A stretch of 59,653 nt of DNA, counting the filler. It is 6 parts of 6 records of this genome, joined end to end, with 100 filler letters (N's around TTAATTAATTAA, not from the genome) between each part and the next. Parts side by side here need not be neighbours in the genome. Positions count along the whole stretch, not along the records: positions 1 to 9,793 come from SRR31156797_6972; 5 more parts are not named here. One strand, written 5' to 3'. Below the pieces are notes generated by a model. That model saw only the letters and a list, made by a program, of their open reading frames with translations, had not been told where the DNA came from and did no database searches. Positions 1-9,793 of this stretch are shown here, piece by piece; within the stretch, counting starts at the first letter, position 1; every line of letters starts with the position of its first letter. The translations under genes and the position numbers were made by a program.

Positions 1-643
1 CTAAATAACCATATTGAGCTATACCAACTCTTGCAAAATCAAAGGTATAATTCTTAAATCTAAATAAACCTGAAGAATTAGCACAATGGAACTTAGGAAT
101 AGTTAAAAAAAGTTTTTCACATAAGTTGATTACCATGTGTTTAGCTTGTATAAAAACTGATCTTTGCCAAAAGAATTCACATGATAATTCATCTGCGCTT
201 CTAAAGTGTGTGAAAACTCCAGTTAAATTAAGTTTTTTCTCACAAATCCCATAAATAGCCTCTTCTATCTGTTTTAGAGTTATTCCATTTCTATGCATAC
301 CTGTGTCAATTTTAAGATGAACATTCGTGTTTTCGGGTAGTTTTTCAATATCTTCCAAACAATTCACAGCGATGTGAAAAGTATGTGAACAAGTGTGAAT
401 ATCACAATCAGCCAGAATTAAGATTTGCTCAAAAAATGTCTCAATTTTTTCTGCTTCTTCTAGTGATTTTACTACTGCTTTTGTTACTCCATACTCTTTT
501 GCAAGTGATGCGATTTCTAAAAGTCCGTGACCATAGGCATTATCTTTTAATACCACTGCAATTTTATCTTTTGAGCCAAGATGTTGTTCTATTTTTTGAA
601 GATTGTGAAAATAATGTGACTTGTTTAAAACGATTTTTGCCAA
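1..643 (-). CDS. alr: Alanine racemase, 5' portion, running off the window edge
   Basis: Not in the ORF track. Manual translation from TTG at 643 gives [15 protein letters not shown]...[13 protein letters not shown] (PLP-lysine motif) and later [12 protein letters not shown] and FTHFRSAD. It lies directly downstream of uvrC. Confidence 0.93.
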
Positions 644-647
644 GAGT

Positions 648-2480
648 TTAACCTTCGAGAGATTTAAAATAATTGATTATAAGCATAGCATCTTTTTCGT
701 TTAGAACATCTTTTAATTCTTCAAGCTTTGCATTTTTGATATTATCAAATGTCCCAAAATATAAAAGAAGTTTTTTAACCTTAGCTTCACCAATTCCTTT
801 GATTTGAAGAAGAGATATTTGAGTGTCTTCTTTTCTTTTTTGTTTCTTATGAAATGTTATCGCAAATCTATGTGCTTCATCTCTTAGTCTTTGTATAAAT
901 TGTAGTCGTTTGTCACTAGTAACTAAATCTAGCCTTTCAATGGCACCATTTTTTTCAAAATATATAATATCTTTTGCACTACCTTTTGCTCTGTGAGCTT
1001 TAAAATCTAGTTTTTCTTTTGCAATAGCAATAATCTCTAAGTTTACTCCAACAGAGTTTCTAATATCAATTGCAAGTTTTAACAAAGTCTCTCCACCATC
1101 TATAACCCACATATCAGGTGCAGGATTTTTTTCAAAGCTATCAACTCTTCTCATTAGAGTTTCTCTCATTTGAGCATATTCATCTTTGGCTTCTAGGTTA
1201 TAGTGTCTAAAATCACTTTTTACAAACTTCTCTTCCCATGTAACCATAGCTCCAACTGTTGCTTGTCCCATCATATGTGAGTTGTCATAACATTCAAATC
1301 TAGTTGGTTCTTTTGCTAATCCAAATAATAACTGTAATTCTTTGTATATAGAAGTTGTATTATTTACATTTGACAACCTTAGTAGTTCATTACAGTTATT
1401 TAGTGCTACATTTATTATCTCAGTTTTTTTACCACGCTTAGGATAGTTTAGAGGAATTTTTTTGTTAAATTTACTTTTTACAAACTCTTCTATTTCTTCT
1501 TTTTCTTCAAGTTCATCTGCAATTAGTATTTCATCTGGAAGTAGGGGGATTTCATTGTCATAATAGTTTATTATAGCTCTTTCATAAGCTTCTTGTAAAT
1601 CTATAGTTATATCTTCTCTATTTGGTTTTATATAATCGTGGTTACTAGAAGCTAGTTTCCCATCTCTAAAGAACATTCTAACTAATACAGCTTTTTGTCC
1701 ATCATCTTTTATTGCAAATAGGTCAATGTTTTCATTTGTAGCTAAATCCATTCCTGTTTGGATTTGAGATTTTTCGATTGTTTTTATTCTATCTCTTAGT
1801 TTCATTGCCTCTTCAAACTTCAAGTTCATACTTAACTCTTCCATTTTTGAAGACAGTTTAGAAATAAGCTTATTTTTGTTGTAAATATAGTTTAATGCAT
1901 CATCAACAAGTTTTGAGTATTCTTCTTTTGTAATCTTCCCTTCACAAGGAGCAAGGCATTTTTTTATTTGATAGAAAAGACAGGCTTCTTTACCTTTTAT
2001 GCATGATTTTTTTTGAACTAAAGGAATAATCTCATAAATAGAGTCTAACATATCTCTAGCTCCTGTAGAGTAGGGACCAAAGTATTTGATGTTTTTTTCT
2101 TTTAAAACTCTTCTTGTTATTTCAAGTCTTGGAAAATCTTCGTTCATATTTATATAAATATATGGATAAGTTTTGTCATCTCTTAATAAAATATTGTATT
2201 TTGGTTTTAATTGTTTGATTAGTGAATTTTCTAAAATAAGTGCATCGTGCTCATTTGGCACTACAATCCACTCTAAAGATTTAACTTCAGTAATCATTTT
2301 ATATATACGAGGACTTAATTTATCAGCTGGAAGAAGTTTTGGTGTAAATTTAAAATAGGATTTTACCCTGTTTTTAAGTACTTTTGCTTTACCAATATAT
2401 AAAAGTTTTCCTTTTTCATCAAAGTATTGGTAAACCCCAGCATCATTGGGTAGTTGTTTTAGTTTATCTTCTAAATTCAT
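648..2480 (-). CDS. uvrC: Excinuclease ABC subunit C
   Basis: GIY-YIG N-terminus (GVYQYFD...[17 protein letters not shown]), UVR domain, RNase H-like domain (ECYDNSH, DGG), RDEAHRFA motif and C-terminal HhH (IKGIG). Confidence 0.98.
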
Positions 2481-2554
2481 TTGTGAATAATATCAAATAA
2501 ACTCTTGAATATCAATTTGTTATAATAGGAAAAAAACAATATAAATGAGAGTAA

Positions 2555-3241
2555 ATGCCTGGTCGACTAGCTATTTTTGATGATACAAGTTTTAGAAAAG
2601 ACTGTAACAATCTAATTAAAAATCCAATGATTAAAACAATTGAAAAAAACTATAATATTGCTCCAACTTTGCCAATTGCTACACTACTTAATAACGGAAA
2701 CTATCTTTATGCTCATTTTGGTTATTTGCCCTCGTGGGCAAAAGATAGAACTTCTATGAATATAAATGCAAGAAGTGAATCAATCTATGAGAAGCAAACT
2801 TTTAGGGACTCTTTTAAAACTAGAAGATGTATTATTCCTTTAAATGGTTTTTATGAGTGGAAAGTTGAAGATAAAGATAAAACACCTTATTTTGTAAAAG
2901 ATGTATCAAATGATTATCTTGCTGTTGCTGGTATTTGGGACGAATGGTTTGATGAAAATCTAAATATGAAGATTGTAACAGTTGCATTAATCACTTGTGA
3001 TGCTAGTGAAAAACTTGCAAAAATACATCATCGAATGCCTATTGTATTAGAGAAAAAAGATTTTGATTTATGGCTAAACTCAAATAGTTTAAAAGATGTT
3101 GTTTCTTTATTCAAACCTTATGAAAGTGAAAAGCTAAATATTTATGAAGTTACAAATGAAGTGAATAAAGTTTTATATAACAACCCCTCTTGTATAGAAG
3201 AGGTTAAGAGTATACAAAATGGGCAGTTGTCTTTGTTTTAG
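2555..3241 (+). CDS. SOS response-associated peptidase (SRAP/YedK/HMCES family) with an N-terminal Pro in place of Cys
   Basis: Family motifs YNIAPT, INARSE, RRCIIP..GFYEW and IHHRMP. N-terminus is MPGR (ATG CCT GGT CGA). C-terminus is GQLSLF. Confidence 0.92.
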   Translation: MPGRLAIFDDTSFRKDCNNLIKNPMIKTIEKNYNIAPTLPIATLLNNGNYLYAHFGYLPSWAKDRTSMNINARSESIYEKQTFRDSFKTRRCIIPLNGFYEWKVEDKDKTPYFVKDVSNDYLAVAGIWDEWFDENLNMKIVTVALITCDASEKLAKIHHRMPIVLEKKDFDLWLNSNSLKDVVSLFKPYESEKLNIYEVTNEVNKVLYNNPSCIEEVKSIQNGQLSLF

Positions 3242-4185
3242 CTTTCTAGAGGTGTATTTTTTATAAGAAATTGAACTCCATCTTTTATATTTTTTGCACT
3301 AAGTTTTGTATTATTTTTTTGTGCAATTTGATAACTCATATAAAGACCAATTCCTGAGCCTTCATCTTTTTTAGTACTGATATGAGCCTTGAAAATATCA
3401 TTTATGATATTTTCTTCTATTCCACCTGCATTATCATTTATTTCAATTATATTTTCATTTTTATTTTTATAGGTTTTAATTACTATTTTTTTATCTTTGA
3501 TATTATTTGATAGAAATGCATCTTTTGAGTTATTTATAATATTTAAAAGAATATGTTTAAACTCATTTTCAATTGCTATAATTTCAAAGTCATCTATTAC
3601 TTCAAGTTCAATTGTTATAAGATGTTTAATAAACTCATCTTTTACTAAAAGTAAAACTTTTTCAATCATTTGTTTTATTTTGAAACTTTCAATATCTTTT
3701 GTTTGTTTAAAAAAAGTTCTAAATTCATTTAGAGTGTTATTCATATGTTCAATTATTGTGTAACTTTTTTGCTGTAAATCTAAGATATATTTTTTGTCAA
3801 CTTCACCATTCTCAAAGTCAAAGTCCATCATACTAAGTCTCATTTTTAAAAGACTTAAAGGTTGAGCCCATTGGTGTGCAATTGCATCAATCATTTCTCC
3901 CATTGCTGCAAATTTAGATTGTTCTAAAAGAAGTCTTTCATTCTCTTCTCTTTTTTTTATCTCTTCTTCAACCTTTAGTTCTAGGTTATTTTTGTATTCG
4001 TCTAGCTCTTCATTTGCTTCAAGAAGTCTAAGTTGCATCTTGTCACTTTGTTTGATTATCTTGTCTAGTCTTTCACTTTTTCTTTTATAATCATCTAATA
4101 AATCAAATAATCCATCTTTGAAATGGTCATAGTCTTTTTTTAAAAATTTACCTACATATTGAGAGTTTAATTTTGAGTTTTTCAT
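3238..4185 (-). CDS. Cytoplasmic histidine kinase with an N-terminal SiaD-like coiled coil
   Basis: H-box (MGEMIDAIAHQWAQPL), N-box (NIINNSKDA), DNAGGI and GSGIGLY. No transmembrane segment. Its start overlaps the stop of the upstream phosphatase gene. Confidence 0.9.
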   Translation of the reverse strand: MKNSKLNSQYVGKFLKKDYDHFKDGLFDLLDDYKRKSERLDKIIKQSDKMQLRLLEANEELDEYKNNLELKVEEEIKKREENERLLLEQSKFAAMGEMIDAIAHQWAQPLSLLKMRLSMMDFDFENGEVDKKYILDLQQKSYTIIEHMNNTLNEFRTFFKQTKDIESFKIKQMIEKVLLLVKDEFIKHLITIELEVIDDFEIIAIENEFKHILLNIINNSKDAFLSNNIKDKKIVIKTYKNKNENIIEINDNAGGIEENIINDIFKAHISTKKDEGSGIGLYMSYQIAQKNNTKLSAKNIKDGVQFLIKNTPLES

Positions 4186-7100
4186 ATTTTAAATCCTACG
4201 ATAGTCATATCATCATTTCTATCATTTTCACCTTGATAATCCATCATTTCATAAAGCAATATCTCTTGCTGGTCTGGAAATGGAAGATTATAGTTTTCTT
4301 CAATTAGTTTTACAAATCTTTTTTTACCAAAAGGAAAACCTTTTTTACCACCATTTTGGTCTAGATATCCATCAGTTGTAAGATAAAATTGCATATTCTC
4401 TTCAACTTCAATTATGTGCTCTTTAAAGACATAGTCTTTATTTGACTTTTTGTAACCTATTGAATGTCTATCGCCTTTTATTATTTTTACTTTGCCATCT
4501 TTTTCATAAAATAAAGCAGTTTCAGAACCTGAAAATTTAATTATATTATCTTTTTTATTATAATAAAGTACTCCACCATCAAAACCTGCATTTGAAATAG
4601 ATGTTTCATCTTCTTGTTTTAGTAAGTGTTTCATACTTTTATTAAAAATTGACAAAATTTTAGAAGGGCTTACAATCTCTTTTGTATTTTTTATATTAGA
4701 AACTATTTGTCTTTCTATAGCTTTTACAAGCATAGTTACAAAAGCTCCTGGAACACCATGTCCTGTACAATCAATTACCATTAAAATACATTCATTTTCA
4801 TCTCTTAGTTCTTCAAATAAATATATATCTCCACCAACAATATCTTTGGGATGCCAGATTGTAAGATAATCTTTAAAATATTTTCTAAACAGATTATTCT
4901 CTGGAATAAGTGCATGTTGGATTAAAGAAGCATATTCAATACTATCTTGTGTTTGTTTATGAATAATCTCTATCTCTTTTTTTGCTTGTTCTAAATCTAT
5001 AGTTCTCTCTTCAACTTTTTTCTCAAGGTTTTTACTTAAATCTTCTACAATCTTTTTGTTTGTTATATCTTGACTTATTGATTTAAAACCAATAAGATTT
5101 GAATTTTTATCATAGTCAGGTTCAATTTTTGAATATAACCAATAAGATATTCCATCTTTGCTTTTGTTTTTTAGTTCACCTTCCCAGCTTTTTTCTTCAC
5201 TTAAGTTTTTCCATAACTCTTTAAAAACTTCACTAGACGTATCCGGGTGCCTAATCATTTTTACTGGTTTTCCTATTAACTCATCTTTTTTATAGCCAGA
5301 TATTTTACAAAAAGCACTACTTACTTGTGTGAAGTTTCCATATTGGTCTGTTTGGTTAAATATTACATTTCTATCTAAAGATTTTAGGGTATTTTCTAGT
5401 TTCTCTTTTTGTTCATTTATATCTTCTGTTTTTTTATCAACAAGTGTTCTTAATTTTTTATTCCAGTAAATAATAAGAGCTGTAATAAAAAGAATAATGA
5501 ATATTATAGGTAAAACATAAGATAGAATTTTTTTAAGTGAAAAACCTTTGTTTTCTTCTATTTTAACTTTTACCCAACCATTATATATTTTCTCTCTATC
5601 TTTTTCACTAATAGTGTCAAAAACCTTATTTATAATTGAAAGAAGCTCTGGCATTTTAGGACTTATTAAAAAGTGGTGAATAAACTCTTTTTCTGTATTT
5701 CCTGCTAATTTGAGGTTTGCTTTTCCTATTCTAGAAATATTATATAAAGCAGGAGCTAAATGTCCAACAAAGATATCTGCATCTCCATTTGAAACTTTTA
5801 AAAGAGCATCGAAAATATTATTTGTCTCTAAAATTTTGCTATTTGGATATAAATCTTTTACATAGTTATAACTAGTGTAGTGTTTTGGTATTGCAAAAAT
5901 ATTGTCTTTTACTGATTCAAGAGACCTTACATATTCTATATTATTGTTAGTAACCATAACCATTGGATATGAAGCATACTTTTTAGAAACTAAACCTAAG
6001 GCTTTTTCCTCTTTTGAATTACCAATTCCAGGGACTAAGTCAATCTCACCTTTTCTAAACTTTTCTAATACTTCAGCCCAACTATTTGCCGGGACATATT
6101 TAAATTCTATACCTGTGGCATCTGAAACTAAGTTTAAATAATCTCCCATAATACCTGATATTGAATTGTTTTCTATTATTGAAAGGGGTTTCCAGTTTAT
6201 TTCACTGTATTTAATAACAATTTTTTTGTTTAGCCAAGCATATTCTTTATTACTAAAATTTATTTTTCTTTTTTCATTAAACCATTTATATTTTAGTTTA
6301 TCAACCTCTTGTATTGAAAGATTATTCATAGCTTTTTTTAAGATAGAAGCTAAAATAGGTGCATCTTTCTTAACTGCAATATAAAGGTTTTCCATCTCAG
6401 GGTCATCTGCTTTCACATCAGATGTGTATTTCAAACTCTTGATAACATTTTCTGCCATTATATGGTTTAAGATTGCAGTTTTCCCTAGTGTTGCATCAAC
6501 TTCTCCGTAAACAACTGCTTTTATACTATCGAGAGTTGTATTGTAAGTGATTATTTCTATTTTTGGATATTTCTCTTTTAAATACTTATCATAAATAAAA
6601 CCTTTTATAACAGAAACTTTTTTCCCAAATAGCGAGTTGATATTTGTAATATCATTTCTATCTTTTTTTGTTAAAATAGAAGTTATATTTCTAGCATAAA
6701 TTCCTACATAATTTAATTTTTCATCTCTTTCTTTTGTCTTTGCAATGTTCATCATTACATCAATTTCACCATTGTAGGCTTTTTTCAAAGATTCATTCCA
6801 AGAGTTTGTGACAAACTCAACATTTAATCCTACAAGTGAAGCTAAGTCTTTTATATAATCTATTGAAAATCCTAAAGGTGTATCATTTTTATTGAAGTTA
6901 AAAGGTGCCCAATCATACTCGTTGTGAACTTTTATTGTAGGGTTGTTTTGTATCCATTTTTTTTCTTCTTCAGTAAAATCTATTTTTTTTATATTTTTTC
7001 TAGAGCAAACTTCCATACTTCCAATAAACTCACCTCTAAATAATATCTCTGTAGTTTGGAGTATGCAATCAATTCTTAGTTGTTTTTCATTGAAAGATTC

Positions 7101-7352
7101 ATTTACAATTTCATTGTTTCTATTTTTGTAAAGAAATAAAAATCTTTCTTTTGTAAGAGCATCATATATAGTAATATATTTAATCTCTTCATTTTTATTC
7201 ATATAATCTTTTAATATTGATTGAATTTCTTTTTCATTTAGCTCATAAAAAGAGTTAGCAATAATACTTGAAATCTGTTTATCCGAATCTTTTGAAGTGG
7301 CAAATACATTTGTTAAGACAAAAAAAACTAAAAAGAGTATTTTATAAAACAT
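4182..7352 (-). CDS. SiaA-like sensor phosphatase: signal peptide, two periplasmic SBP family 3 domains, TM helix, PAS, PP2C/SpoIIE domain
   Basis: Two SBP repeats (DWAPFNF...GFSIDY; NWKPLS...GIMGDY), TM LSYVLPIIFIILFITALIIYW, PAS (SGYKKDELIGKP..IRHPD), and PP2C motifs DIVGGDIY, DCTGHGVPGAF, TDGYLDQ and DDMT. Confidence 0.9.
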   Translation of the reverse strand: MFYKILFLVFFVLTNVFATSKDSDKQISSIIANSFYELNEKEIQSILKDYMNKNEEIKYITIYDALTKERFLFLYKNRNNEIVNESFNEKQLRIDCILQTTEILFRGEFIGSMEVCSRKNIKKIDFTEEEKKWIQNNPTIKVHNEYDWAPFNFNKNDTPLGFSIDYIKDLASLVGLNVEFVTNSWNESLKKAYNGEIDVMMNIAKTKERDEKLNYVGIYARNITSILTKKDRNDITNINSLFGKKVSVIKGFIYDKYLKEKYPKIEIITYNTTLDSIKAVVYGEVDATLGKTAILNHIMAENVIKSLKYTSDVKADDPEMENLYIAVKKDAPILASILKKAMNNLSIQEVDKLKYKWFNEKRKINFSNKEYAWLNKKIVIKYSEINWKPLSIIENNSISGIMGDYLNLVSDATGIEFKYVPANSWAEVLEKFRKGEIDLVPGIGNSKEEKALGLVSKKYASYPMVMVTNNNIEYVRSLESVKDNIFAIPKHYTSYNYVKDLYPNSKILETNNIFDALLKVSNGDADIFVGHLAPALYNISRIGKANLKLAGNTEKEFIHHFLISPKMPELLSIINKVFDTISEKDREKIYNGWVKVKIEENKGFSLKKILSYVLPIIFIILFITALIIYWNKKLRTLVDKKTEDINEQKEKLENTLKSLDRNVIFNQTDQYGNFTQVSSAFCKISGYKKDELIGKPVKMIRHPDTSSEVFKELWKNLSEEKSWEGELKNKSKDGISYWLYSKIEPDYDKNSNLIGFKSISQDITNKKIVEDLSKNLEKKVEERTIDLEQAKKEIEIIHKQTQDSIEYASLIQHALIPENNLFRKYFKDYLTIWHPKDIVGGDIYLFEELRDENECILMVIDCTGHGVPGAFVTMLVKAIERQIVSNIKNTKEIVSPSKILSIFNKSMKHLLKQEDETSISNAGFDGGVLYYNKKDNIIKFSGSETALFYEKDGKVKIIKGDRHSIGYKKSNKDYVFKEHIIEVEENMQFYLTTDGYLDQNGGKKGFPFGKKRFVKLIEENYNLPFPDQQEILLYEMMDYQGENDRNDDMTIVGFKI

Positions 7353-8061
7353 GATTAATCTTTATTTTTTCATTTATTTTTTTTATTATTTTGTTAGAAA
7401 CTTTTTTAGAACATATAAGATATCTTTTGTTTCCTTTTGGAATATTTTTTATAGGATAGAATTGTAAGTTGGAAATGTTTTTATTGTCTAGTAATACTTC
7501 TGCTTCTTCTTTTGTCATAAACATATAATCAGCTCTTTTTTTAGATATGAGTTCAAGCATTTTTTGATTATCGTTGTACACTACTTTTTTATTTACATTA
7601 TAAGAGTCTATTCTTTCATCCAGAAATTTCCCATAAGAGTATGAGGCTTTTGTAAGAAGACTATTTTTTTTATTGATTAGCAAATTATCAATGTTCATAT
7701 TAGGAAAAATACCTGCGGTATCTTTTCTTGCAATAATTCCCATTGGATTATCTTGATATACAAAATAGGTATATTTTGCATATTTTTCTCTTTCTTTGTT
7801 TTTAAACCAGCCCATTGCGCACATAGGAATTGTATTTGCTTTTATCTCATAAAGGTGTCGTTTAGATGGTCTTTCTTTTAGTTCATAGTCTATTTTAGCT
7901 TTTTTTAGTGCTTTTATTATAGGTGTTGCAACTAAACCTTCAACTGAGTTTTTTACTTTTTTTACATAAGGTATTCTCTCTTCATAAACAACAATTAAAC
8001 TATCGTTAGCATAAAGTAATGAAAAAAAGAAAATATAAATTATTATAAAAAATTTACACAC
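7342..8061 (-). CDS. Periplasmic substrate-binding protein (family 3-like)
   Basis: Signal peptide, ERIPY motif, and a typical SBP3 pattern (KRADY). Overlaps the start of the phosphatase gene. Confidence 0.75.
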   Translation of the reverse strand: MCKFFIIIYIFFFSLLYANDSLIVVYEERIPYVKKVKNSVEGLVATPIIKALKKAKIDYELKERPSKRHLYEIKANTIPMCAMGWFKNKEREKYAKYTYFVYQDNPMGIIARKDTAGIFPNMNIDNLLINKKNSLLTKASYSYGKFLDERIDSYNVNKKVVYNDNQKMLELISKKRADYMFMTKEEAEVLLDNKNISNLQFYPIKNIPKGNKRYLICSKKVSNKIIKKINEKIKINHVL

Positions 8062-8200
8062 TCTATAACCTTTTCGTATATTTATTATGATAACATATTA
8101 TATCAGAAAATAATTACTTAATTTCATTATTTATTATACAAAATAATAAATAGTTTGAATAATGTATAGTTATTTCTAACTAAAATGTTTAGGTTATATT

Positions 8201-8551
8201 ATGAAATTTTTAGTTGTAGATGATTCAAAGGTAGCTAGACAAAGAGTTGTCTCTTATTTAAATGATTTGAATTATGAGGTTGTAGGTGAAGCCGTAGATG
8301 GTATTGATGCAATTGAAAAGTTTAAGATGTTAACTCCTTGTGTAATTGCACTTGATTTGGAAATGCCTAATATGAAAGGTATCGAAGCTTCAAAAAAAAT
8401 TTTAGAAATTGATCCTACAACTAAAATAATTTTAATTACTTCAATTATAGATAAAAAAGAGATTATTAATGCCTTACGAATTGGTGTTAAAAAAGTTATT
8501 AGAAAACCTTTTACAAAAGAAAAGTTACAAGAGATAATAAATGAACTATAA
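8201..8551 (+). CDS. Single-domain response regulator (CheY-like receiver)
   Basis: VVDD, LDLEMP (phospho-Asp), ITS and KPF motifs; 116 aa. Confidence 0.93.
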   Translation: MKFLVVDDSKVARQRVVSYLNDLNYEVVGEAVDGIDAIEKFKMLTPCVIALDLEMPNMKGIEASKKILEIDPTTKIILITSIIDKKEIINALRIGVKKVIRKPFTKEKLQEIINEL

Positions 8552-8560
8552 AGGCAGAGT

Positions 8561-9118
8561 ATGAATATACAAGTTATTCAAGATATTGTTGAAGAAGATG
8601 GCATAGTTTTTTTAACTTATGGTGGGTTCTTATCTCAATCTTTAATTTCATCTATGATGGAAGCTTTAGAGAAAGAAGCTGAAGAAAGGGATTTGAGTCT
8701 TGGAGAATCAAGTAATATTTTTACTATATTTATAGAATTAACACAAAATATGATGAATTACTCAAAAAGTAAAAATTTAGGCTCTGATAAGATAAACCCA
8801 CAAGGCTTAATAGTTGTTACAAAAGATAAAGATGCTAACTATTTTATTCATAGCCAAAATGTTATTGGAATAGAAGACAGACAAAAAATAGAACCTAAAC
8901 TACAAACAATAGCAAAGCTCTCAAGAGATGAAGTAAAAAAACTTTATAGAGAATCAAGAAAAACGGGTCAAGATAAACATGGTAAAGGTGGAGGAATTGG
9001 GTTTTATGAAATTGCTAAAAGAAGTGATGAAATAAAATATACTTTTAAGGAAATAAACAAAGATAGGTTTTATTTTCACTTTATATCAAAAATAATAACT
9101 AAAAAGGAGAAAAAATAG
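8561..9118 (+). CDS. siaB: SiaB family protein kinase
   Basis: YGGFLSQ, FIELTQNMMNYS (N-box-like) and GGGIGFYEIAKRS (G-box-like). Directly upstream of a siaC homolog. Confidence 0.85.
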   Translation: MNIQVIQDIVEEDGIVFLTYGGFLSQSLISSMMEALEKEAEERDLSLGESSNIFTIFIELTQNMMNYSKSKNLGSDKINPQGLIVVTKDKDANYFIHSQNVIGIEDRQKIEPKLQTIAKLSRDEVKKLYRESRKTGQDKHGKGGGIGFYEIAKRSDEIKYTFKEINKDRFYFHFISKIITKKEKK

Positions 9119-9499
9119 ATGAATAATCTGGTGATTGAAGAGACTAAATATACACCATACATAAGATTTAGTCAAGAAGAGGGAGTTTTAGAAATAATTG
9201 GAAAATCTTATCCTGAAAACACTTTTGAATTTTATAAACCAATGATGGAATGGATTGAAGAGTATTTTGATGGAAATGAAAAAGAAAAAACTATAGTTAA
9301 TATGGAAATTATATATTTTAACTCAAGTAGTTCAAAACTATTTTTTGATTTTTTTGATTTATTAGAAGAAGCTCACAATAATAAAAAAATTGTTCAAATA
9401 AACTGGATATATGATGATGAAAATGAAAGTGCTTTAGAAGCAGGTGAAGATTTTAAAGAAGATTTTGAAGAACTTGAGTTTAATTTAAAAGCTAAATAA
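9119..9499 (+). CDS. siaC: SiaC family regulatory phosphoprotein (DUF1987)
   Basis: TKYTP, GKSYPENTFEFY, YFNSSSSK and WIYD..NE...EAGEDF motifs; 126 aa. Confidence 0.9.
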   Translation: MNNLVIEETKYTPYIRFSQEEGVLEIIGKSYPENTFEFYKPMMEWIEEYFDGNEKEKTIVNMEIIYFNSSSSKLFFDFFDLLEEAHNNKKIVQINWIYDDENESALEAGEDFKEDFEELEFNLKAK

Positions 9500-9517
9500 C
9501 TTCTCAAAGGACTTAAA

Positions 9518-9793
9518 ATGCAAGAGAATGAAAACAAACTTATCTCAGAACTTGAAACCCTTCAAGAGAAGTTTAAAAAAACTACAGATAAGTTGATAAA
9601 AGATATTACTCGTCATGATAAAATTATGGCACAAAGTGATAAGAGACAACAAAAAGAGTACGATGAACTTCAAATAAAACTTAAAGAGGTTGAGGCTTTA
9701 AGTAAAGAGATTGAAGAAACTCAAAGAGAAGTTGTTTTTACTATGGGAGCTATTGGGGAAAGTAGAAGTAAAGAGACAGGAAACCATGTAAAA
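9518..9793 (+). CDS. Coiled-coil plus HD-GYP phosphodiesterase, N-terminal fragment cut by the contig end
   Basis: EIEETQREVVFTMGAIGESRSKETGNHVK is the typical start of RpfG-type HD-GYP domains. Confidence 0.75.

Follow-up and report, generated by a model that had tools for sequence, protein, structure and literature searches.

The study of SRAP proteins, which include HMCES and bacterial YedK, rests on the premise that an N-terminal cysteine serves as a suicide crosslinker that shields abasic (apurinic/apyrimidinic, AP) sites. This cysteine is termed 'absolutely conserved' and always the second amino acid (PMC3765255), or simply 'invariant' (PMC9436759). The gene at 2555..3241 (+) of the DNA analysed here, a stretch of 59,653 nucleotides including filler (the window; its positions 1 to 9,793 come from record SRR31156797_6972), encodes an SRAP protein of 228 amino acids plus stop in which that residue is a proline. 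The locus thereby raises the question of whether an SRAP active site without its thiol is still in use and, if so, what it does to an abasic site. Here we describe a clade of such proteins (Pro2-SRAPs), which departs from the premise of the field, and weigh the chemistry that may remain to it. A literature search that left aside subscription journals and supplements found no paper on an SRAP protein with proline at position 2 or on the clade.

A full-length SRAP protein with proline at position 2

The sequence reads ATG CCT GGT CGA at 2555..2566 (+), giving M1-P2-G3-R4 as claimed in a preliminary description of the locus, with the Pro2 codon CCT at 2558-2560 occupying the family's Cys2 position. 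An in-frame TAA (2552..2554, +) abuts the start codon on its 5′ side, so that there is no N-terminal extension and no upstream start giving another N-terminus; an alternative start supplying a cysteine, a possibility that the preliminary description had raised, is excluded by this stop. The frame closes with TAG at 3239-3241 (+), and the protein end reads GQLSLF. Two further public runs, each from a study of its own (X2 and X3), have contigs that cover 2400-2940 with zero differences within 2555-2570; this excludes an assembly error and agrees with the earlier judgement that a single sequencing error is unlikely.

The gene encodes an SRAP-domain protein over its full length. The Pfam SRAP family (PF02586) is matched at E 1.4e-56, with a score of 191.9 bits where the cut-off is 27.1, spanning profile positions 1-214 of 214. 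SRAP is the only Pfam family that scores above its cut-off, and in the same search of the protein no Fapy_DNA_glyco, H2TH or zinc-finger domain did so. The NCBIfam YedK-type model PRK09951 gives 60.4 bits against a cut-off of 349, and the protein thus fails the equivalog cut-off for YedK itself. The solved structures nearest by sequence are 2f20 (1.3e-31), HMCES (4e-17) and YedK (3e-11). An AlphaFold2 model built from a 147-sequence alignment has a mean predicted local distance difference test score (pLDDT) of 95.7 and a predicted template-modelling score of 0.91, falling to a mean pLDDT of 72 over the last eight residues; an 18-sequence alignment of the clade had given a pLDDT of 41.4, and the larger alignment was used instead. 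Foldseek aligns the model to 2f20 and HMCES with a template-modelling (TM) score of 0.83 and to the YedK–DNA crosslink (6nua) and the Schiff base of YedK C2A (8d2m_B) with 0.77, and all structures listed at E ≤ 0.001 are SRAP structures (TM 0.66-0.83).

The motifs that the preliminary description had called intact were all located in the open reading frame (ORF), on the plus strand: NARSE (residues 71-75, 2765..2779), GFYEW (residues 98-102, 2846..2860), HHRMP (residues 158-162, 3026..3040) and the terminal QLSLF (3224..3238). HMMER alignment to the YedK chains equates N71 and R73 of the first motif, which is invariant in the clade, with Asn75 and Arg77; E101 and W102 of the second with Glu105 and Trp106; H158, H159, R160 and P162 of the third with His160, Asp161, Arg162 and Pro164; and L145 and T147 of the segment L145-I146-T147-C148 (2987..2998, +) with Ile147 and Thr149. 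All of these positions are conserved in the clade. In YedK, Arg77, Thr149 and Arg162 anchor the AP-site phosphate while Trp67 and Trp68 hold the single strand, Glu105 acts as AP-site sensor and hydrogen-bonds the linkage, His160 and Asn75 contact the DNA, and Trp103, Ile147, Thr149 and Pro164 form the thiazolidine pocket (PMC6821365). The residues of the phosphate anchor and the single-stranded DNA groove are kept in the window protein (W61, R73, T147 and R160 for YedK W67, R77, T149 and R162), and the active-site set of N71, E101 and H158 is invariant or nearly so. In a 123-sequence alignment, 84 of the 228 positions are near-invariant, among them N71, R73, E101, W102, T147, H158, R160 and P162; within the clade, an alignment of 18 sequences shows no variation at P2, G3 or R4.

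A comparison of 18 Pro2 rows with 129 other rows locates what has changed. Position 2 is proline in 18/18 Pro2 rows, against cysteine in 128 and threonine in one of the others; position 145, in the pocket wall, is leucine in 18/18, against isoleucine in 111 and leucine in 6 of 129. Further clade-specific changes are F/Y5L, W55F and T148C. To judge from these alignments, the surroundings of the N-terminus appear to have been remodelled rather than to be decaying. We considered Cys148 as a surrogate thiol and rejected it: as the β-strand neighbour of the pocket residue T147 it should point off the pocket (a deduction made without coordinates), and it is threonine in the basal protein P0121.

Origin and maintenance of the Pro2 clade

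The close homologues carry proline in place of cysteine. Among the 120 best (65-95% identity; source names Halarcobacter, Arcobacter and Poseidonibacter), 110 start with MPGR and 7 with LPGR, which brings [M/L]PGR to 117/120 and answers the question of conservation posed in the preliminary description; the starts of the remaining three are called differently, and one of these has an internal VPGR. An exhaustive search of 50%-identity cluster representatives returned 22,739 proteins with E ≤ 0.001, and among the 150 matches listed the only further Pro2 proteins were P0121 and P0122 (44-46% identity); cysteine stood at position 2 in 128 and threonine in one (P0249), the others having longer or cut N-termini. 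A scan of one genome per prokaryotic species with two peptide patterns kept 80 loci, 51 of which have an [M/L/V]PGR start, a number that is a lower bound because the scan depends on those two patterns. The record titles of the Pro2 loci name Arcobacter, Halarcobacter, Poseidonibacter, Arcobacteraceae, Sulfurimonas and Sulfurimonadaceae, and the nearest Cys2 loci in the scan come from Sulfurovaceae and Sulfurimonadaceae.

Over the 51 Pro2 loci, the start codon (ATG in 35, TTG in 11, GTG in 5) always stands directly before the proline, which is itself encoded by CCT in 25, CCA in 18, CCC in 5 and CCG in 3. This spread indicates that the nucleotides have drifted while the proline, and its place as residue 2, have been maintained. 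Pro2 is neither a sequencing error nor a sporadic loss. One locus in the scan, on a metagenome-assembled chromosome of Halarcobacter ebronensis (L025:6001-6683), has a Pro2-SRAP gene broken after 67 codons where tblastn aligns all 228 residues, which reflects either a break in the frame or a misassembly.

The purifying selection that the preliminary description had proposed to look for is found: the ratio of non-synonymous to synonymous substitution rates (dN/dS, NG86 method) comes to 0.09-0.22 in the five pairs of lowest divergence. Across 713 pairs with dS < 1.5 the median is 0.31, a value inflated by saturation. These figures bear on the possibility that the gene is a loss-of-function allele, a decaying gene or an artefact of sequencing or annotation, which we regard as very improbable. 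The family is indeed patchy, with a match in only 15 of 301 sampled genomes of the order (7 Pro2, 5 intact Cys2 and 3 remnants, either fragmentary or interrupted by stops), and the broken locus in H. ebronensis is of the kind that decay would produce. Against this stand a clade that extends down to about 43% identity, the low dN/dS of its close pairs, its 84 near-invariant positions, the confirmation of the sequence in independent contigs and a start fixed by the in-frame stop just upstream.

Two maximum-likelihood trees were computed with the first three alignment columns removed. Tree 1 has 72 rows (every ninth Pro2 homologue, P0121, P0122, the first 55 full-length Cys2 representatives and P0249), and tree 2 has 52 rows built from genome loci. 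In both, a branch with SH-aLRT support of 97 sets all the Pro2 rows apart, and they are nested among Cys2 proteins of Campylobacterota; on these trees the Pro2 proteins are one clade with one origin within the Cys2 SRAPs. In tree 2 the Pro2-SRAPs of Sulfurimonas (L041-L050 and L152-L154) form a clade with 100% support inside rows labelled Arcobacteraceae (L027, L029, L032 and L038), a nesting that may reflect passage of the Pro2 form from one family to another by lateral transfer. Locus L050, labelled Arcobacter, encodes a protein identical to that of L153, which is from a Sulfurimonadaceae sample.

SRAP copy number was counted in the genomes of relatives. Each of the first five genomes examined has one SRAP. 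In a sample of 151 Arcobacteraceae genomes (the family of genome G001), 59 carry an SRAP gene and none carries two; 57 of 58 typed genes are Pro2 and one is Cys2 (in G097), one further fragment being untypeable, and G123 has two SRAP halves on two contig ends. A sample of 121 genomes from the family of G005 contains 13 with one SRAP each, 4 Pro2 and 9 Cys2. Two SRAP genes thus occur in 0 of the 72 SRAP-bearing genomes (59 + 13), and across the 71 in which the N-terminus was typed a Pro2 copy never stands alongside a Cys2 copy. Because the gene is always single copy, Pro2 took over from Cys2 as an orthologue and was not added as a paralogue; the Pro2 form replaced its Cys2 orthologue, and the gene as such is dispensable. 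The three remnants in other Campylobacterales (L161 in G455, L162 in G320 and L163 in G313) comprise one Cys2 gene with stops or a frame change and two short fragments, and are consistent with repeated gene loss in the order. These comparisons support a real, old SRAP subfamily under purifying selection, with Pro2 and an otherwise intact active site, and none of the sequence-based grounds for refutation named in the preliminary description applies. Taken as a whole, the earlier interpretation is partly supported and is sound as a hypothesis.

Candidate chemistry and the C-terminal tail

With no thiol at position 2, closure of a thiazolidine ring is not possible. The activity that we consider most likely, while holding it tentatively, is that of a Pro2-dependent AP lyase on single-stranded DNA, convergent with Fpg/Nei. 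In the proposed mechanism, a functional SRAP-fold protein would recognise AP sites in single-stranded DNA, and removal of the initiator methionine would expose an N-terminal proline instead of a cysteine. The kept DNA groove, the phosphate anchor (R73, T147 and R160) and the helper residues (N71, E101 and H158) would then provide for AP-site binding and opening of the sugar ring, upon which the N-terminal amine would attack C1′ and the secondary amine of the proline would yield an iminium ion. The most likely outcome would be β-elimination, that is, AP-lyase strand cleavage with enzyme turnover, while the QLSLF-type C-terminal tail would hold the protein at the β sliding clamp. We infer methionine removal, iminium formation, the lyase outcome and clamp binding.

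An initiator methionine that precedes proline is removed by methionine aminopeptidase. Such removal has been observed in mycobacterial Nei2, where, as in Nei/Fpg, the exposed N-terminal proline is the Schiff-base nucleophile at C1′, and Nei2 is an AP β-lyase on single-stranded DNA (PMC11323726). Within the SRAP fold itself, the YedK mutants C2A and C2S no longer become stably crosslinked; instead their N-terminal amine enters a Schiff base that borohydride can trap (8D2M), and they cleave AP-DNA by β-elimination (PMC9436759). It is this behaviour, Schiff-base formation together with AP-lyase action, that makes an AP lyase our preferred reading. The lyase activity of C2A depends on Glu105, the double mutant C2A E105Q being 25-fold slower (PMC9436759).

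The likenesses are of different kinds. To YedK and HMCES the protein is homologous over the whole SRAP domain, with the same fold, the same anchor and helper residues and a reactive residue directly after the initiator methionine; it differs in that Pro2 replaces the cysteine, which removes thiol and thiazolidine alike, in the change of the pocket wall from isoleucine to leucine, and in the substitutions at positions 5, 55 and 148 given above. With the engineered YedK C2A and C2S it shares an SRAP active site without a thiol, and its model matches 8d2m_B at a TM score of 0.77, yet these are laboratory mutants with a primary α-amine, whereas the Pro2 clade is natural and conserved, has a secondary amine and shows co-varying pocket residues. 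With Fpg, Nei and Nei2 it shares the N-terminal proline directly after the initiator methionine, a working likeness and not membership: the fold is unrelated, Gly3 stands where Fpg/Nei have glutamate after the proline, and nothing suggests a base-excision pocket. The likeness of Pro2-SRAPs to Fpg/Nei would be convergent.

Several points weigh against a lyase. The P2C mutant of Nei2 is inactive as a lyase (PMC11323726), so that swaps of an N-terminal nucleophile are not automatically tolerated and depend on context. A lyase acting on the single-stranded template at a fork would create breaks, the opposite of the protective role of HMCES and YedK, and that the protein is the sole SRAP in its genomes and bears an ancestral clamp-type tail suggests that the ancestral job continues. 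Retention of the asparagine, glutamate and histidine can also be explained by recognition of the AP site, given their roles in YedK (PMC6821365). The gene is missing from 92 of the 151 sampled Arcobacteraceae genomes and hence dispensable, and a comparison of Pro2 with Cys2 genomes for Fpg/Nei and Y-family polymerases revealed no genomic correlate that singles out a lyase role.

Several candidate explanations were tried on such genomes and dropped. Compensation by Pro2 for a missing Fpg/Nei was rejected: PF01149 is found in 0/5 Pro2 genomes and also in 0/4 Cys2 genomes of Campylobacterota. A tie between Pro2 and a lack of translesion polymerases was likewise rejected, Y-family polymerases being present in 5/5 Pro2 and 4/4 Cys2 genomes, as was an absence of Nth-type lyases, since HhH-GPD proteins occur in 5/5 genomes. 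Control by the SOS response fared no better: a LexA DNA-binding domain is found in 0/5 Pro2 genomes, so that 'SOS response-associated' is here a family name only.

In a second possibility, Pro2 would serve as a reversible covalent shield: an iminium, carbinolamine or ring-closed N-glycosylamine would be held without β-elimination, so that the AP site is protected and quickly released and no long-lived crosslink has to be removed. Such a shield would preserve the ancestral role and fits the status of the protein as sole SRAP, the absence of coexisting Cys2 copies (0/72 genomes with two SRAPs), the retention of the clamp-type tail and the strict conservation of N71, E101 and H158. As His160 and Glu105 of YedK catalyse ring opening and crosslink reversal (PMC9436759), ring closure on a proline-linked sugar is chemically conceivable. 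Yet the Schiff base of C2A, in the same active site, does go on to strand cleavage (PMC9436759), and a permanently charged prolyl iminium should, by the chemistry of Fpg/Nei, eliminate at least as readily; we judge the shield unlikely. Equally doubtful in our estimation is the linkage that it would entail, an as yet undescribed DNA–protein bond in the form of a prolyl iminium or ring-closed prolyl N-glycosylamine at the AP site, held by the SRAP pocket without cleavage. We know of no precedent for a stable prolyl–AP adduct. Whether by the preferred lyase route or by such an adduct, it is probable that the strand bearing the lesion is cut, or held reversibly, and that the protein does not become locked to it.

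A third possibility is that covalent chemistry has been given up altogether, leaving a non-covalent binder of AP sites or single-stranded DNA tethered to the clamp, with Pro2 in a structural role such as capping a buried N-terminus. All the DNA-anchoring residues are kept (W61, R73, T147 and R160), Glu105, His160 and Asn75 of YedK also serve in binding and sensing, and YedK C2A still binds single-stranded DNA with a dissociation constant of 7.9 uM (PMC6821365). A natural lineage moreover shows SRAPs persisting without the nucleophile. Among the 120 best matches of the Thr2 protein P0249, five start with MTGR and three with MSGR, and the Ser2/Thr2 SRAPs so gathered (P0249, P0271, P0274, P0276, P0279, P0285, P0286 and P0288) are alphaproteobacterial, with the source names Cohaesibacter celericrescens, C. 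marisflavi and uncultured Cohaesibacter. Like the Pro2 clade they are natural, lack Cys2 and carry a clamp-type tail, and their DNA anchors are mostly kept.

The same lineage also provides a contrast. Its members have the active-site asparagine replaced in 8/8 and the histidine replaced in 8/8, and look like catalytically dead DNA binders; both residues are kept in the Pro2 clade, where they are invariant, which speaks for continued use of the catalytic apparatus in this clade. P0249 falls away from the Pro2 clade in tree 1, and by this placement the Ser2/Thr2 lineage is unrelated to it. A mere binder, in addition, need not have position 2 and the exact start fixed, yet the proline is kept through all four of its codons with the start codon always adjoining. 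On this evidence we think a non-covalent binder somewhat unlikely, and an AP lyase remains the reading that we prefer.

QL[SD]LF is the canonical consensus of the β-clamp-binding motif, and the pentapeptide at the extreme C-terminus of the window protein (3224..3238) is of this type, following a K/E-rich linker whose length varies in the 18-sequence clade alignment. Q..[LMIF][FL] lies within the last nine residues of 110/119 Pro2 homologues, and QLSLF is the commonest ending, found in 65 of the 120 best homologues. Of the 60 ORFs of at least 100 amino acids in the window, 2 show the loose form of this C-terminal motif, Q..[LMIF][FL], and the strict form at the very end is confined to the Pro2-SRAP gene. 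With β-clamp partners that carry a C-terminal motif of this type, the protein shares an end-of-protein pentapeptide after a variable, low-confidence linker, conserved in orthologues.

The preliminary description had taken the tail as the mark of a clamp-tethered subfamily; the conservation stands, and the exclusivity does not. A QLSLF-type tail is present in 23 of the 127 Cys2 cluster representatives nearest the window protein, and a QxxLF-type tail in 112/120 alphaproteobacterial SRAPs (QGSLF in 61, QLDLF in 9, QLSLF in 7), so that the tail is older than the change from cysteine to proline. HMCES is likewise tied to a sliding clamp through its binding of PCNA (PMC7313144). Most likely the QLSLF-type tail would tether the protein to the β sliding clamp, in the way that HMCES is held by its PCNA-binding tail, and the wide occurrence of such tails suggests a general link between bacterial SRAPs and the β clamp, the counterpart of HMCES–PCNA. 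Prediction of a complex between DnaN (L086) and a Pro2-SRAP (P0006), both from genome G006, gave scores of 0.24 and 0.16 against a mark of 0.34, in runs made without controls, and these scores carry no weight on either side of the question of binding. The same literature search, with the same exclusions of subscription journals and supplements, found no paper linking a bacterial SRAP or YedK to the β clamp.

Gene neighbourhood and implications for the SRAP family

The SRAP gene is divergent from uvrC (648..2480, −), whose 610-residue product contains a GIY-YIG domain, a UVR domain and two UvrC RNase H domains. The spacer between them, given as about 75 bp in the preliminary description, measures 74 bp (2481..2554). 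By eye it contains an extended −10 element (TG at 2518-2519 and TATAAT at 2521-2526), which may be a putative promoter element, and a purine-rich GAGAG (2547-2551) before the ATG; a consensus promoter scan of the spacer listed no promoter on the plus strand, and no conservation of the spacer sequence was seen between loci. In the fetched flanks, uvrC lies upstream and divergent in 22/56 loci, all 22 of them of Arcobacteraceae type and none from Sulfurimonas. Downstream of uvrC and on the same strand, the N-terminal part of an alanine racemase (Ala_racemase_N, E 3.3e-43; 2-643, −) runs off the start of the window.

On the other side, a gene for a 315-residue protein with HATPase_c as its only domain (3238-4185, −) is convergent with the SRAP gene and meets it at its 3′ end, the two stop regions overlapping. 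The HATPase_c gene overlaps by four bases a gene for a 1056-residue sensor (4182-7352, −) with two SBP_bac_3 domains, a PAS domain and a SpoIIE/PP2C phosphatase domain. The last part of the SRAP coding sequence also contains, on the minus strand, a hairpin and T-run resembling a terminator (3184-3202), located just beyond the end of the convergent HATPase_c gene; terminator-like sites number 3 in the region, against 0.3 expected.

For the SRAP family, the Pro2 clade amounts to a natural experiment on a thiol-free active site, carried by many Arcobacteraceae and some Sulfurimonas as their sole SRAP. Should it prove to be a turnover lyase, it would represent a second, convergent invention of the N-terminal-proline mechanism of Fpg/Nei, on an unrelated fold and in genomes where no Fpg/Nei was found; should it instead hold a reversible adduct, that adduct would be a new linkage, standing in nature in place of the thiazolidine crosslink that HMCES and YedK make. 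Either would change the definition of SRAP proteins.

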